Assembly (NCBI GenBank): GCA_964634885.1
Contig: CAZWLN010000009.1
Coordinates: forward strand, 17,735 to 81,734
Length of the DNA: 64,000 bases
DNA from: an uncultured Hyphomicrobiales bacterium
GTDB lineage: Bacteria > Bacteroidota > Ignavibacteria > Kapaibacteriales > UBA2268
Direction of reading: 5' to 3'
Under the pieces are notes generated by a model that saw only the letters and a program-made list of their open reading frames with translations, was not told the DNA's origin and did no database searches. The position numbers and the translations under genes were made by a program. Below, piece after piece: positions 10,393 to 16,860 of this stretch (its first letter is position 1; every line of letters starts with the position of its first letter).

Positions 10393-13300
10393 ATGAAAAA
10401 ATCGAATTTGATAAGAATATTAAAAGTACTTGCACTCTGTATTGCTCTTCTTATAATGCTTTATCAGCCAATTTATTCTGCTAAATTTCCCTACCCTATT
10501 ATATTTGTTCATGGAATAAGCGATAGAAATAAAAGCTGGGAAAAACTGTTCAAAGAAATTCGACCTTTATTCAATATACCATCAAATATTCCTGAAAATA
10601 ATATTTCTAATGGAATTGTTTTCCATGCGTTACTGAATGCTTCGTCATCTACGAATATATGGGGCAATAATAATGTTAAAAATGATGATGATGATGACGT
10701 TATTTACAAATTTATTGAAAACGAACAATTGCAAAATTCTGACATATATTTTATTAATTTTGATTGCTATTGGAATGAGGATTCTAAATATCCAACTCTA
10801 ATTACATACCCTGTAAAAGGGTTAAATTTAACACATCCTGGAGACAATTACTATTGTCTATATAATTTTGATTCAAAAAGTAATGAGAGTGCAGTTTATA
10901 AACAAGGATACGCTCTCAGTAAAGCAATTGATGCAGTACTCAAAGCTACCGGTTCTGAAAAAGTAATTTTAGTCGGACATTCAATGGGAGGTCTTTCAAT
11001 CAGAGAATATCTTCAAAGATATGAAAATGGAAACCCGAAATGGTGGGAGATAAATATAGGACATCATGTAGCAAAAGTTATTACAATAGGGACTCCACAT
11101 TATGGCTCTGACTTATTAAAGATTGATGCAATTGGGAATTTTATTGGTTTAAATACTATAATTACAAGATCAAAGAGTGAAGCATTACGAGATTTAAGAA
11201 AAAGCAGTGTTTATCTAAATAATAATAGTAATGATCCAAATTATGAATGTGGTGCTTTTGGTGAAGACATAATTAATTTATATTTTAATCAAGATATTAA
11301 TTGTAATGGAAATCCTCGTATTGATGATATTCCCGGTCTTAATTCACCTATTAATTTACCTTCTGATATATCTTTTACATATATTGTTTCTTCAATACCA
11401 TATTTTCAATCTGAGGATTGTGGAGATAGAGTCGTTACTAAATCTTCTCAATATGTACGTTATGGTGAATCCGATACTATAGAAACAGAAAAATACCATA
11501 ATGGTACTATTCAAAAAATTTACGAACCATATTCCTTAATACCCGGTATGAAAGCTATGTACGGAATAGAAATGGAAGATTATCTATCCATAATGAGAGC
11601 ATTGGATGAACCAAATGTACCCAAATTAGCTTTCCAACTGCACATGAATCAGGAATACAGTAATTTTGCGAACATTGGAATTTATTACAATACAGATTAT
11701 GATTACGACTGGTATAAAGTAGCTGTTAAAGGTGGTTTGATAACAATAAGATTAAGTAATTTATTACAACGAAAAGGGAGAATAGACTTTTATGAGAATG
11801 AACCAACAGATGCTAATTCAATTTATTCAAAAGAATTTGATAATTTACCTGAAACTGAAGTTGAATGTAAACCCGGCTTGATGCTTAATGAAAAGGAATA
11901 TTATATCAGGATAACTCATTATAATATAAAGGGACCTGAGGATACAGATTGCGATTGGAATAAACCTTTTACAATAACAGTTGAAGGAAAGGGTTATTTT
12001 GTTGATGTTGACTTCAGAAGCGACAAGCAAGGTGTTGTTGTTCCTAATAGTAATGTACAATTTACTGATTTATCAATAAACAATGGAAATGAGGATCTTT
12101 CATACGAATGGGATTTCGGTGATGGTACCCCAAATAGCTATTTAAAAGATCCTTCCCACACATATACAGAACCAGGACAATACTCAGTCAGATTAAAAAT
12201 AAATGCTTATGGTACAAATTTTGAAAAAACATTAAAAAATTATATCTGGGTAAATCCTCCTGACTGTCCAAATATAGTTAAAGCTGAATACTTTTTCGAT
12301 GATGATCCAGGTTTTGGAAACGCAAGTTCAATTACTTTTACCGCAGATAATTTCCAGGACATCGAATATACAATAGACCTGAGTGATGTTACTTTAGGTT
12401 TACACAGGCTTTATCTGAGAGTCATGGATGAAAACGGCAAATGGTCTCACCTCCAGTCAAGGCCAGTACTTGTTGAAAACACTGAAACCTACAGAGAGAT
12501 AACTAATGTTGAATACTTTTTGGATAGTGAACCAGGATTTGGTAATGGTACTACTATCCCAATTGGAAAAAATTTGGAAGTTAATATTTTCCCTACTATT
12601 AATCTTACAAATATTAGTGAAGGATTGCACAGGCTTTACATAAGAGCAAAGGACAATAAGGGTAAGTGGAGTATGCCTCAGTCCAGGCCAGTATTAGTTC
12701 AAAATATCGAAGAAAATAAGATTACGGATATTGAGTTTTTCTACAGACGAGACCCAGGTAAAGGACAAGGCAATAGTATTGATATTGAACCTAATTACGA
12801 AGTATTAGTTGATGACAGATTACCTTTGTACAATAGGAAATTAGGCAAAGATACGATATATATCAGAGCTAAAAATGATAAAAATGTTTGGGGGATTCCA
12901 CAAAGTGTTGAGTTTACTATTAATGATGACCTAATTGCTCCAGAACTATTATATCCAATTGCCAATGAGAAAGTTACAGCTTCAGAGATTAATTTCCAAT
13001 GGACAAACATCGGAGCAAAGAGATATGAGTTAATAGTTGATAATGACAAAGAAATGAACTCACCAGAAGTCTCAACCATCAATTTTGATACGCTTGCAAA
13101 CTTTAAAAAGTCTTCGTACAAGCTCTGCGGCAACTGGCTTTCGGATAATAAAATCTTCTGGAAAATTAAAGCTGTATTTTTCGATGGTAGGTCTTTAGAA
13201 ACACCTGTAGATTCATTTAATTACAATCCCACAAAGAATCCTCAACCTCAGTGGGCGCCTATTTATAGGGCTTATTATCAGAATGATGTCGATCACTTCT

Positions 13301-16300: not shown

Positions 16301-16860
16301 CTGTGCAGTACTATCATTCAGATTCGAGGGGGAGTACAATTACCATGACCGATTCCGATCAGAATCTCATCAATAAGTATTCATACGATACTTATGGGCA
16401 ACTGCTCAAAATGGAAGAGACTGATCATAATCCATTCAGGTTTGTCGGCGCTTACGGTGTAATGGACGAAGGCAACGGGCTGTACTTCATGCGAGCCAGG
16501 TATTATGATGCCGCTTCGGGTCGCTTCCTGACAGAAGACCCGGTTTGGGATCTGAATCTTTACGGGTATGCCGGGAATAATCCGGTAATGAATATTGATC
16601 CTGAGGGAAAATTGTATTCAAATTTTGAACTTTTACTTGGCTTTAAAGAAGGTGGTTCGGGTTTTAATGTTGGATTGCAAAGTTTAAGGGATGTTTATGG
16701 AGTCTTTTATACAAAAAAACTATCAGTAGGACAAGCTATACAAAACGAAATAGCAAATTTATTAGTTCTCGCACCTCTTAAAATTATGATGATAATACCT
16801 GAGAATCCATATATAATTGTACCAAATGGCAAAAAGAAAAGCAAACTTAATAAATCGTGA
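10393..16860 (+). CDS. Secreted RHS/YD-repeat polymorphic toxin: signal peptide, alpha/beta-hydrolase (lipase, GHSMGG) domain, PKD domain, repeat modules, long YD-repeat shell, RHS core (YYDAASGRFLTEDP...DPEGK), about 85-aa C-terminal tip
   Basis: 2155-aa ORF; lipase motif VILVGHSMGGLSIREY; PKD motif WDFGDGTP; dozens of YD repeats (YxYDxxGNL); RHS-core aspartyl-protease motif near 16597-16611 followed by short variable C-terminus. Confidence 0.85.
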   Translation: MKKSNLIRILKVLALCIALLIMLYQPIYSAKFPYPIIFVHGISDRNKSWEKLFKEIRPLFNIPSNIPENNISNGIVFHALLNASSSTNIWGNNNVKNDDDDDVIYKFIENEQLQNSDIYFINFDCYWNEDSKYPTLITYPVKGLNLTHPGDNYYCLYNFDSKSNESAVYKQGYALSKAIDAVLKATGSEKVILVGHSMGGLSIREYLQRYENGNPKWWEINIGHHVAKVITIGTPHYGSDLLKIDAIGNFIGLNTIITRSKSEALRDLRKSSVYLNNNSNDPNYECGAFGEDIINLYFNQDINCNGNPRIDDIPGLNSPINLPSDISFTYIVSSIPYFQSEDCGDRVVTKSSQYVRYGESDTIETEKYHNGTIQKIYEPYSLIPGMKAMYGIEMEDYLSIMRALDEPNVPKLAFQLHMNQEYSNFANIGIYYNTDYDYDWYKVAVKGGLITIRLSNLLQRKGRIDFYENEPTDANSIYSKEFDNLPETEVECKPGLMLNEKEYYIRITHYNIKGPEDTDCDWNKPFTITVEGKGYFVDVDFRSDKQGVVVPNSNVQFTDLSINNGNEDLSYEWDFGDGTPNSYLKDPSHTYTEPGQYSVRLKINAYGTNFEKTLKNYIWVNPPDCPNIVKAEYFFDDDPGFGNASSITFTADNFQDIEYTIDLSDVTLGLHRLYLRVMDENGKWSHLQSRPVLVENTETYREITNVEYFLDSEPGFGNGTTIPIGKNLEVNIFPTINLTNISEGLHRLYIRAKDNKGKWSMPQSRPVLVQNIEENKITDIEFFYRRDPGKGQGNSIDIEPNYEVLVDDRLPLYNRKLGKDTIYIRAKNDKNVWGIPQSVEFTINDDLIAPELLYPIANEKVTASEINFQWTNIGAKRYELIVDNDKEMNSPEVSTINFDTLANFKKSSYKLCGNWLSDNKIFWKIKAVFFDGRSLETPVDSFNYNPTKNPQPQWAPIYRAYYQNDVDHFYCTSDEHLKTAINGNYDFEKVEGYVSIVPFETEDLKPIYRLYIDKDKSHVYTTEDTKKDYYISMDTTNLYEGIIGYTYGTTTNAESISNGGLVKLYYTFFDSADLKLRDHFYTTSEIEKNNSIRNGYVDSGFIAYVSPFGRQITEPEMDAHAIIGNGINVSNGNFNYTGATVFDIPGAGLPLRFEFNYNSNSTRLIQPIIPMGPGWNHTYNSSLIAGDSLYYIFWSNGSIHLYNKQDLKSVTNGVYNKLIKDSGNRYKVITKEQIVYIFNKFNDNDSTAVLSQIADRNGNQLDCIYQNDGTDVIRLKSVVSTVGNRKIEFIYFNEPGKNHLIKEAIDPMNRIVKFDYDNNNNLIQFTDANGFVTNYYYDSVYTYDHLLTKIKLPENNFIENIFEIDTLSGMSSKRIISQCYGDNEYNDSLHFTFHSQFNTIQMTNKLGEVDYFLFDNTPEKKIEGIVTSQSGSNYEYTDTLNPALPTKMTDGMGYKTNYLYDQNGNVLEVNLPNNTTHKFEYNEFNDVTKYSDPKGISTQYYYDEKGNLLSITNPRGKTEFRYNQNGTIAEITNPMNEKTRFEYNDYGNITKIVDNIGNKRLMEYDIAGRVIKRIDERDFSSDYAYNGNDFLTKVKNPMSKEIKYQYTQNNNLSAIINQKSDTTKLSYTSTGLLKSITNPLNQITSYDYDYSGQVVSITKPDGNKISCQYNNLGQYSNYLGGYNVIPAESRPDSIFVFNKNGNLISINTESEEKKYISYDSLNRITKVIGYFNDTISYSYDLNSNITEIIYPGGKRVSYTFYDDNLLKSLEDWHGNLTSYYYRSDGLLDSVQYGNGTNCKYDYDGTGRLIAINHKRSDGTIIFSNRYILDNAGNQLSVDSEEPFPYDPLKTGVLVSNYDRANRIDTSGKVSYKFDNNGNMTEKDSSGIITKYFYDSMNRLVQTIRQDTVSYSYDALGTRIASIRSGMTTRYVIDNNSNLSRLLVEMDSLNNPVNYYIYGLGLVSRLKTDGTVQYYHSDSRGSTITMTDSDQNLINKYSYDTYGQLLKMEETDHNPFRFVGAYGVMDEGNGLYFMRARYYDAASGRFLTEDPVWDLNLYGYAGNNPVMNIDPEGKLYSNFELLLGFKEGGSGFNVGLQSLRDVYGVFYTKKLSVGQAIQNEIANLLVLAPLKIMMIIPENPYIIVPNGKKKSKLNKS

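Follow-up and report, generated by a model that had tools for sequence, protein, structure and literature searches.

A secreted lipase-like protein fused to a complete RHS cage in a tRNA-Thr island, and a candidate T9SS adaptor encoded beside it

The window analysed in this work is a stretch of 64,000 nucleotides (nt) of contig CAZWLN010000009.1 (assembly GCA_964634885.1), which derives from an uncultured bacterium of the GTDB order Kapaibacteriales (Ignavibacteria, Bacteroidota). One open reading frame (ORF) of this window, located at positions 10393–16860 of the forward strand, encodes a protein of 2155 aa (~240 kDa) in which a secreted lipase-like head is joined to a complete RHS cage. This giant fusion, named here the lipase-RHS protein, is real and very rare. 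It consists of two modules, each of which is conserved elsewhere by itself. Module 1 (aa 1–955) is a typical front end of the cargo proteins that use type IX secretion (T9SS) in the Fibrobacteres-Chlorobi-Bacteroidetes (FCB) group, and module 2 (aa 956–2155) is a complete RHS toxin unit of the kind that is not linked to type VI secretion (the T6SS). Module 2 takes the place of the C-terminal T9SS sorting domain with which module-1 proteins usually end. The product of a gene further downstream, which combines one YD hairpin with a T9SS sorting domain, is proposed from its sequence as a trans-acting T9SS adaptor. We assign a probability of about 0.5 to the reading that the lipase-RHS protein is a composite T9SS-linked weapon, secreted or held at the surface and targeted to glycans, which carries both a lipase and an RHS tip.

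Results and discussion

Two modules in a single protein

The ORF has exactly the coordinates given in an earlier note that a model had made on this DNA, and all the features that the note had listed in it (lipase, PKD domain, repeats, RHS region and core) were found in Pfam and NCBIfam searches and by the positions of their motifs. The domains follow each other along the protein in the order of this list (positions in the window, strand, feature):

10393–10479, +, Sec-type signal peptide, aa 1–29 (MKKSNLIRILK, hydrophobic core, QPIYSA), as read from the sequence
10489–11601, +, alpha/beta hydrolase similar to bacterial family I lipases, with the oxyanion motif H40-G41, S197 in GHSMGG, D345 and H369
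11620–11997, +, PPC/collagen-binding-like beta-sandwich, ~aa 410–535
12028–12204, +, PKD domain, aa 546–604 (Pfam PKD, 4.9e-13; PKD_4, 9.9e-13)
12280–13005, +, three tandem immunoglobulin (Ig)-like domains of ~77 aa each, aa 630–706, 705–780 and 779–871 (custom hidden Markov model, HMM)
13006–13257, +, spacer of ~84 aa, aa 872–955
13258–13707, +, DUF5648 (PF18885), aa 956–1105 (E = 2.6e-19)
13762–13983, +, DUF6531, the N-terminal plug of the cage, aa 1124–1197 (PF20148, 1.4e-10)
13984–16383, +, YD/RHS repeat shell, ~aa 1198–1997
16384–16611, +, Rhs-associated core, aa 1998–2073, with a presumed aspartyl autoprotease and its cleavage site
16612–16860, +, orphan C-terminal tip and stop codon, aa 2074–2155 (82 aa, nt 16612–16857), ending in NGKKKSKLNKS

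An identical protein of 2155 aa is present in three independent public assemblies (one contig of 120.7 kb from NCBI, one from JGI and one Logan assembly), and protein P0002, from a metagenome-assembled genome of the Bacteroidota, shows 41% identity over 96% of the query with the same architecture. Therefore, a chimera or another artefact of assembly can be excluded. Homology searches, in which loci were numbered L003–L092 and proteins P0001–P0120, gave a list of 120 matches, and among these the combination of hydrolase and RHS was found only in P0001, P0002, P0003 and P0005.

Two of these proteins, P0003 (locus L004, 8001–16463) and P0005, contain in addition a zincin metalloprotease of the M43/reprolysin-like type, with the motif HEFGHLFGLFH; a precomputed Pfam M43/Reprolysin assignment exists for P0005. 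Both have five Ig repeats, and each of these polypeptides would thus unite three potential activities.

The lipase head

The AlphaFold2 (AF2) model of the lipase-RHS protein has an N-terminal helix at aa 2–23, and no lipobox was seen in the signal peptide read at aa 1–29. In the alignment of homologues the conserved hydrolase domain begins at P34-Y-P-I-I-F-V-H-G. The GHSMGG motif (aa 195–200) lies within the matches to three Pfam families that pass their cut-offs, namely LCAT (33.5 bits, cut-off 21), Abhydrolase_1 (33.7 bits, cut-off 25.8) and PGAP1 (24.4 bits, cut-off 24.3), whereas Lipase_2 remains below its own (17.5 versus 20.3 bits). The triad Ser197/Asp345/His369, the H40-G41 pair and GHSMGG are invariant in the aligned homologous N-terminal domains (104 out of 104), and the motif TxGTPHxGS is also invariant, or nearly so, in this alignment. 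The AF2 model of the N-terminal region, obtained with 48 sequences, has a mean predicted local distance difference test (pLDDT) value of 82. Its best Foldseek matches in the PDB are the lipase and the cholesterol esterase of Burkholderia cepacia, together with lipases of Pseudomonas, Proteus and Streptomyces (7cof, 1ys1, 5h6g, 1ex9 and 4gw3; E = 1e-5 to 3e-8). Bacillus subtilis LipA, the top PDB match by sequence in phmmer, was also recovered by Foldseek. Alignment and model support a head whose fold is closest to that of the true lipases and which is predicted to be a catalytically intact lipase-like hydrolase. The earlier note, which had described a Sec signal followed by an alpha/beta-hydrolase with a GHSMGG motif, was right on this point.

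The same head recurs in over 100 ordinary T9SS cargo proteins (for example P0007–P0120), and the proteins that have it often continue with a PKD domain and the same Ig array, with a gene of the par family described below lying ahead. Hence, a role of the lipase as a second toxin head is one possibility only. The "two-headed effector" of the earlier note keeps its intact lipase-like head and its RHS cage, but a second toxin head is not a necessary conclusion from them.

The stalk and DUF5648

The PPC-like domain is all-beta in the AF2 model and matches 5sv5, 2o8o and 1nqd in Foldseek, with target-normalised template modelling (TM) scores of 0.63–0.73. The three Ig modules share the consensus EYFxDxDPGxG...GLHxLYxRAKDxxGxWS, and their EYF/EFF..(D/E)PG.G motifs begin at aa 632, 707 and 781. 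When the whole array is scored, and only then, it reaches the threshold of the Pfam family Y_Y_Y (28.2 bits, cut-off 26.6); the EYF module is therefore an Ig-like sandwich. The spacer that follows (aa 872–955) is conserved in P0002 and had no Pfam match up to E <= 10; it is probably another beta-sandwich.

DUF5648 was detected with 70.2 bits (cut-off 25), and the three H(F/V)Y(C/T)T(S/E) motifs, which begin at aa 968, 1018 and 1079, all fall inside it. Thus the PKD domain and the three copies of each repeat module stand as the earlier note had placed them, but the modules are not "unusual", as it had called them: both are of known kinds, one Y_Y_Y-like and the other DUF5648. The latter has been described as a three-bladed propeller that forms the receptor-binding C-terminal domain (CTD) in the pore-forming Bacteroidales toxins BSAP-2 and BSAP-3, whose target is O-antigen, and it is also found in GH70 enzymes (bioRxiv 10.1101/2025.01.06.631476). 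By analogy with this receptor domain of the BSAPs, DUF5648, standing directly before the cage, is a plausible, putative domain for the recognition of glycans or receptors. The order DUF5648-DUF6531-RHS was also observed in L085 and L087.

The RHS cage and its tip

The RHS cage is complete, with plug, shell and a core that contains both Asp motifs; self-cleavage is presumed from these motifs. The shell is matched by RHS_repeat (PF05593, 4.8e-50, in seven stretches), YD_repeat_2x (TIGR01643, 5.3e-35), RHS_core (7.9e-43) and a precomputed TEN_YD-shell assignment. TIGR03696 matches aa 1998–2072 with 67.2 bits (cut-off 32.5) over positions 1–75 of the 76 of the profile. The core motifs TEDPVW and NIDPEGK are invariant across the clade (D926/P927 and D946/G949/K950 in the numbering of alignment A4), and DPEGK corresponds to aa 2069–2073 (nt 16597–16611). 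The core segment is also set apart by its base composition, since its GC content (0.474 at 16384–16611) forms a spike against 0.34 in the shell, 0.30 in the tip and 0.30–0.35 in the rest of the gene.

The variable toxin region that the earlier note had expected behind the core was evident in the comparison of homologues. The tips of P0001, P0002, P0003 and L085–L092 are mutually unrelated and measure 82–184 aa, whereas the cages that precede them are 33–42% identical. An exhaustive phmmer search with the window tip against 1.84e9 representative proteins returned the tip itself and two spurious matches to helical/Ig repeat proteins, and neither Pfam nor NCBIfam gave a match or a recognised toxin family; no known nuclease or deaminase was found in any of the three. 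The tip has a net charge of +6 and a grand average of hydropathy (GRAVY) of +0.08, as compared with -0.55 for the whole protein. It contains a single hydrophobic stretch, IANLLVLAPLKIMMIIP, which includes prolines, and two GxxxG motifs located in a polar stretch. A hydrophobic tip of ~85 aa with a K-rich tail had been proposed: the position behind DPEGK and the NGKKKSKLNKS tail are correct, but the tip measures 82 aa and is only moderately hydrophobic. Glycine-zipper or hydrophobic segments occur in the sister tips of L088, L086, L087, L090 and P0002, which fit a membrane-active class and lend some support to it at the level of the family.

Neither PAAR nor VgrG nor any other T6SS trafficking domain was found in the lipase-RHS protein by Pfam scan (E <= 0.1). 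Together with the Sec signal and the hydrolase at the N-terminus, this agrees with the non-T6SS route that had been suggested for it.

A YD-hairpin partner gene beside the cage

The gene that may bear on the delivery of the cage lies downstream and has the following positions in the window and in the other loci:

20026–23268, +, YD-hairpin partner; signal peptide followed by one YD hairpin, then Ig domains and a T9SS type-A sorting domain
Other loci, from position: L003, 15863; L004, 16460; L085, 7497; L086, 5280; L087, 6744; L088, 3687; L090, 1274

The hairpin occupies the mature N-terminus of the window protein (aa 28–63, nt 20107–20214; Pfam RHS_repeat at aa 33–62). The remainder of this protein matches Ig_3 (3.7e-49) and Por_Secre_tail, and its sorting domain at aa 1001–1074 scores 33.5 bits with TIGR04183 (cut-off 23). 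The window codes for three other proteins with a T9SS CTD.

Scanning metagenomes with the cage alignment yielded eight more loci (L085–L092), of which L085 and L087 were scanned with Pfam; in none of the eight was a lipase, an Ig array or a par gene found. The hairpin gene is next to the RHS gene, or follows the par array in the case of the window, in all eight loci that have downstream sequence (the window, L003, L004, L085, L086, L087, L088 and L090). A 177-aa ORF of doubtful coding value separates the two genes in L086, and the Cyclobacteriaceae loci L032 and L034 are outside this count, as their sequence ends within the RHS gene. In the loci without an RHS fusion (L005–L084) the hairpin gene is absent. 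The hairpins follow the consensus xIxYxYDxLNRLxxVxYxNGSxxxYTYDAVGNR immediately after the signal peptide, with a mean pairwise identity of 42%, and the remaining domains of these proteins are variable and mostly unrelated. Four of the five complete hairpin proteins (window, L003, L088 and L090) have a T9SS type-A sorting domain. The fifth, that of L004, has a dockerin instead, and a T9SS sorting domain is encoded by a separate gene that follows it.

The location of the hairpin at the mature N-terminus and of the sorting domain at the C-terminus suggests that these proteins dock on the cage and supply the sorting signal in trans, which is why we propose them as candidate T9SS adaptors. The non-T6SS route of the earlier note is thus maintained and is refined to a likely T9SS route through a neighbouring adaptor gene, which the note had missed.

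Beta-helix paralogs accompany the Ig array

Three paralogous genes, named here par, separate the RHS gene of the window from the hairpin gene:

16869–17876, +, par1, secreted right-handed beta-helix of 335 aa with a signal peptide; starts 8 nt after the RHS stop codon
17880–18986, +, par2, beta-helix paralog of 368 aa with a signal peptide
18990–20006, +, par3, beta-helix paralog of 338 aa with a signal peptide

The AF2 model of par1 is a right-handed beta-helix (pLDDT 94; predicted TM score, pTM, 0.90), for which Foldseek gave weak, generic matches to pectin-lyase folds (PL6 alginate lyase, Pel9A and pectin methylesterases). The par proteins end in a conserved C-terminal hairpin that finishes with GLKVKFKAKSNKD. 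No Pfam or NCBIfam model covers the family, its members are labelled hypothetical in every source, and neither par1 nor the hairpin protein matched a defence system in PADLOC. A comparison of par2 and par3 revealed a mosaic, in which the first ~60 aa are 93–97% identical (94.5% over the first 165 nt), the central helix 13–40% and the C-terminus 60–70%. This pattern suggests that the ends have undergone gene conversion or that the central face has diversified, and points to constant docking ends with a diversifying binding face.

The par alignment was scanned against one genome per GTDB species, with E-values that refer solely to the candidate stretches. The 232 relatives obtained include no close one (identity at most 39%). 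The best 80 loci, which were analysed, belong to Bacteroidota, Calditrichia, Cloacimonadota, Ignavibacteriales and Verrucomicrobia and include the cultured Lunatibacter, Lunatimonas and Tangfeifania. In ~78 of these 80 loci one to three copies of a par gene (~340 aa) are immediately followed by a gene on the same strand for a protein with 2–15 tandem EYF Ig domains (for example L006 2822–9345, L019 9944–14376 and L070 9995–12350), usually placed directly after the signal peptide of the partner protein. The heads of these partners vary (S8 subtilase, M6 peptidase, PGAP1-lipase or no enzyme head), their stalks are built of PKD, cadherin, CARDB or MBG domains, and they normally end in a T9SS type A or B tail (Por_Secre_tail or CHU_C). 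L081 and L008 encode a lipase with Ig array and T9SS CTD without RHS. Since ~78 of the 80 loci pair them irrespective of lipase or RHS, the par proteins belong with the Ig array and not with the toxin. A role of the downstream paralogs as immunity proteins was rejected in view of their signal peptides, their beta-helix fold and their synteny with the Ig array in loci free of toxin.

A one-to-one ratio of par copies and Ig repeats was also considered. It holds in the window (3:3) and in L004 (5:5), but it was ruled out by L003 (4:3) and by most loci, which have one par gene and 2–6 repeats. In L003 and L004 the par genes lie upstream of the RHS gene (five par genes in L004), and only in the window does a par array stand after the RHS gene and before the hairpin gene.

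In two loci of the Cyclobacteriaceae, L032 (10995–20957, Lunatibacter salilacus) and L034, an Ig-array protein with six repeats, a TIG domain and six CARDB domains, in which a sorting domain was not found, is followed after 10 nt by a separate DUF6531-RHS gene. This arrangement is a split version of the fusion of Ig array and RHS, and in L. salilacus it exists in a cultured strain.

The RHS tip ends in a Lys-rich stretch (PNGKKKSKLNKS and stop codon, 16825–16860) that resembles the conserved C-terminus of the par proteins (QNGLKVKFKAKSNKD and stop codon), both being placed at exact 3' ends of ORFs. The tail was compared with the par 3' ends at 17840–17876, 18950–18986 and 19970–20006, as a candidate remnant of one of them. 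The DNA alignment was suggestive, but 32–175 of 2000 shuffles reach its score, the resemblance is not significant against windows of the island either, and the par HMM does not match the tip.

Proposed mechanism and alternative explanations

In the preferred reading, the T9SS-linked weapon, the lipase-RHS protein would be exported by Sec, and its cage would fold in the periplasm and cleave the 82-aa tip inside itself. The product of the gene at 20026–23268 would then dock on the cage by beta-augmentation through its YD hairpin, and would supply in trans the signal for T9SS export and surface anchoring. Once exposed on the surface or released, the protein would recognise glycans of the target cell through DUF5648 and perhaps also through the variable par beta-helices attached to its Ig array; the lipase would attack membrane lipids, and the cationic, partly hydrophobic tip would be released onto the membrane. 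Since no member of the clade has an immunity gene next to it, self-protection may come from encapsulation or receptor specificity, as in the BSAPs, or the targets may not be kin.

Several observations weigh against this reading. No T9SS sorting domain, either of type A (Por_Secre_tail) or of type B (CHU_C), was found in the RHS protein with Pfam and NCBIfam, and to our knowledge the T9SS export of a cage bound to a partner has no precedent. In none of the clade loci is the RHS gene separated from the next conserved gene by one of the size expected for immunity. The lipase head is common to many proteins that may be plain nutritional exoenzymes. The synteny analyses are built on custom HMMs from few sequences and on naive ORF calls, and, as regards the par genes, an interaction between par proteins and Ig array is suggested by synteny only, since par copies do not match the Ig repeats. 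The tip is another weak point: its best 19-residue Kyte-Doolittle window is 1.43, under the usual transmembrane threshold of 1.6, and with this mixed hydropathy a hydrophobic, membrane-active character is not established for it. The "possibly membrane-active tip" of the earlier note finds some backing at the level of the family, in the several sister tips with glycine-zipper or hydrophobic segments. This tip is moreover the shortest of the clade, where the sisters have 97–184 aa, and it could therefore be truncated.

An alternative that we hold to be unlikely is an enzyme-adhesin without weapon function, in which a scavenging lipase would be carried by a stalk of Ig, PKD and DUF5648 domains that binds glycans, the cage would be structural, as in teneurins, and the tip vestigial or truncated. 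The more than 100 ordinary cargo proteins that have the same lipase head and Ig array are in line with it, as are the absence of an immunity gene everywhere in the clade and a tip that is orphan and the shortest; the unique position of the par genes and the faint resemblance between tail and par hint at a rearrangement and leave truncation possible. However, this resemblance is not significant by the shuffles given above, conservation of the autoprotease core is full and includes both Asp motifs, hypervariable tips on a conserved cage are the hallmark of polymorphic toxins, and the segments present in several sister tips are typical of membrane toxins. A literal version of the two-headed effector of the earlier note, which seems to us distinctly improbable, is a free two-headed antibacterial toxin that would leave the cell by Sec and a route resembling the type II secretion system, in vesicles or by lysis, with the paralogs as periplasmic immunity proteins similar to Tli. 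The signal peptide, the intact lipase triad, the complete cage and the cationic, partly hydrophobic tip are all consistent with such a toxin, and the signal peptides of the paralogs would put them in the right compartment for immunity to a lipase. Against this stands the behaviour of the paralogs, which track the Ig array in ~78 of 80 loci, nearly all without lipase and RHS, lie upstream of the RHS gene in L003 and L004, and are beta-helices of 330–370 aa with a hypervariable centre, unlike known immunity proteins; the conserved hairpin partner with its T9SS CTD would also be left unexplained.

The least probable of the readings is an effector similar to the Tc toxins and directed against eukaryotic grazers or hosts (protists or invertebrates), whose glycan-binding domains would aim it at the eukaryotic cell surface, whose lipase and tip would harm the membrane and for which immunity would not be needed. 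It would account for the absence of an immunity gene, a trait of the Tc toxins as well, which share the cage principle. The lipase, the M43/reprolysin-like metalloprotease of P0003 and P0005, both typical of host-damaging exoenzymes, and the PPC/collagen-binding-like domain would also suit it. On the other hand, a TcA-like translocation partner and SpvB or TcdB domains were not found by Pfam scan, the tip is unlike known eukaryote-directed enzymes, DUF5648 has so far been tied to the recognition of bacterial O-antigen, and the source samples are environmental metagenomes without a host signal. 

A wider version of the T9SS-linked weapon is possible but tentative: RHS cage toxins of the FCB group would be T9SS substrates that lack a signal of their own and receive it in trans from the hairpin neighbour, and the fusion of the window cage to the par/Ig-array module would make it a modular, multi-enzyme and glycan-targeted weapon of a mobile island.

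Comparison with known systems

Rhs toxins are understood almost entirely through the T6SS and, in Firmicutes, through Sec and WapA. With the classical Rhs proteins (E. coli RhsA/B, B. subtilis WapA, P. aeruginosa Tse5 and Photorhabdus TcB-TcC) the window protein shares the YD cage, a plug of the DUF6531 type and a DPxG...DPxG core, and its clade shares the hypervariable tip behind the core. It differs from them in the lack of PAAR/VgrG and of a downstream immunity gene, in the end of the cleavage motif, which is GK and not GL in most of the clade, and in the ~950 aa of enzyme and adhesion domains, including a lipase that looks active by sequence, that are added before the cage. The conserved partner with YD hairpin and T9SS CTD is a further feature of the clade. 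A Sec signal in place of a T6SS domain has a precedent in WapA, and the TcB-TcC Tc toxins apply the same cage principle without immunity proteins. For a short Rhs tip that is membrane-active and forms pores, a precedent is Tse5-CT (PMC9637101, PMC10684867).

The T9SS cargo proteins with an LCAT/PGAP1 head (P0007–P0120; L081 and L008) have a hydrolase of the same family, in which HG, GHSMGG, TxGTPHxGS, D and H are invariant, but they end in Por_Secre_tail or CHU_C, whereas the window protein ends in RHS cage and tip without a sorting domain. The Tle/Tli pairs (lipase effector and immunity protein of the T6SS) resemble the window in their alpha/beta-hydrolase lipase, possibly directed against membranes, and in the proteins with signal peptide that lie beside it. 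They differ in delivery, as there is no T6SS context here, and the neighbours in the window track the Ig array and not the lipase: the Ig-array proteins that adjoin par genes may have an S8 head, an M6 head or none at all, and the par genes are thus not specific for a lipase. The BSAPs, which belong to the MACPF proteins, are likewise secreted toxins of Bacteroidota with a DUF5648 three-bladed propeller, for which recognition of O-antigen or other glycans is implicated, and they also lack a classical immunity protein. They differ in having a MACPF killing module with DUF5648 at the C-terminus, where the window protein has a cage, tip and lipase, with DUF5648 in an internal position.

The closest parallel for the export route is found in Apibacter. 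Steele and Moran (2021) noted that rhs genes of this genus adjoin genes with T9SS type-A sorting domains, and they proposed a link to the T9SS that was left open; the exit route of many Rhs proteins of Bacteroidota and relatives is an acknowledged open question (PMC8125069). These genes likewise belong to Bacteroidota, lack PAAR and stand beside T9SS type-A genes. Their N-termini, as described in that paper, are of the SpvB/TcdB kind, in contrast to the lipase, PKD, Ig array and DUF5648 of the window protein, and the paper describes neither a neighbour whose mature N-terminus is a YD hairpin nor a trans-adaptor mechanism. Beyond this remark, nothing was found in the literature on lipase-RHS fusions or on a T9SS adaptor for RHS proteins.

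The window and the seven sister loci of the RHS clade provide a concrete candidate for this export, namely the conserved YD-hairpin protein with T9SS sorting domain. They also indicate that an RHS cage can replace the sorting domain of a standard T9SS protein made of enzyme and stalk; an enzymatic and adhesive front end on an RHS cage, here outside any T6SS or immunity context, is without precedent. Two conserved and undescribed gene partnerships emerge, that of par with the Ig array and that of the RHS cage with the YD-hairpin protein. The former, a pair of genes for a beta-helix and an Ig array, is widespread and unannotated across the five groups listed above. If lipase and tip both act on membranes, the lipase-RHS protein would be a rare RHS protein that adds, to the toxin inside its cage, an enzymatic warhead on the outside.

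The genomic island and its other genes

The lipase-RHS gene lies at one end of a region with the marks of an integrated element:

9958–10004, unstranded, left 47-bp direct repeat, which duplicates the 3' half of tRNA-Thr and marks the left end of the island, 389 bp before the RHS start codon
49702–50769, no strand given, tyrosine integrase (PF00589, 1.5e-18), which adjoins tRNA-Thr
51013–51059, unstranded, right 47-bp repeat, an exact match to the left one, overlapping the 3' half of tRNA-Thr
51017–51090, –, tRNA-Thr(CGU), found with ARAGORN (the feature spans 51013–51090 with the right repeat)

The GC content of the island is 0.353, as compared with 0.475 and 0.423 in the flanks, and at the left repeat it drops from 0.47 to 0.21–0.33. 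In view of the repeats, the tRNA gene, the integrase and this drop, the lipase-RHS gene is the first gene of an integrated island of 41 kb. The island at tRNA-Thr is, by its sequence features, the mobile element that brought in the cluster. A strong terminator-like hairpin (AAAAAGCCCGGCAGAATCAATGTTCTGCCGGGCTTTTTTT) is located at 9918–9957, just outside the left repeat, and a region of 390 bp that is extremely rich in AT (GC 0.21) lies ahead of the RHS start codon.

Immediately behind the hairpin partner, the stretch 23305–29214 (+) encodes a protein of 1256 aa with SBBP repeats, PKD_6 and a choice-of-anchor-D-like domain, and a protein of 712 aa with an OmpA C-terminal domain; these genes may belong to the same surface-protein operon as the hairpin partner. 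They are followed by a defence cluster at 29233–40704 (–), with a sigma-54 activator of the RtcR/PspF type (CARF-AAA-HTH; PADLOC PDLC01995, 1.2e-78), an MIT_C/PLD-like protein and an NsnB/AriA-like ATPase (AAA_15-DUF3696). The cluster continues with a complete type I restriction-modification system (–), formed by HsdS (33921–35075), HsdM (35833–37329) and HsdR (37330–40704). Two WD40 beta-propeller proteins are encoded in the window. One, at 6948–9038 (+), has 696 aa and ends in a T9SS type-A sorting domain. The other, at 41402–46654 (–), has 1750 aa and lies within the island, downstream of a gene of the OmpA family on the same strand (46632–48770).

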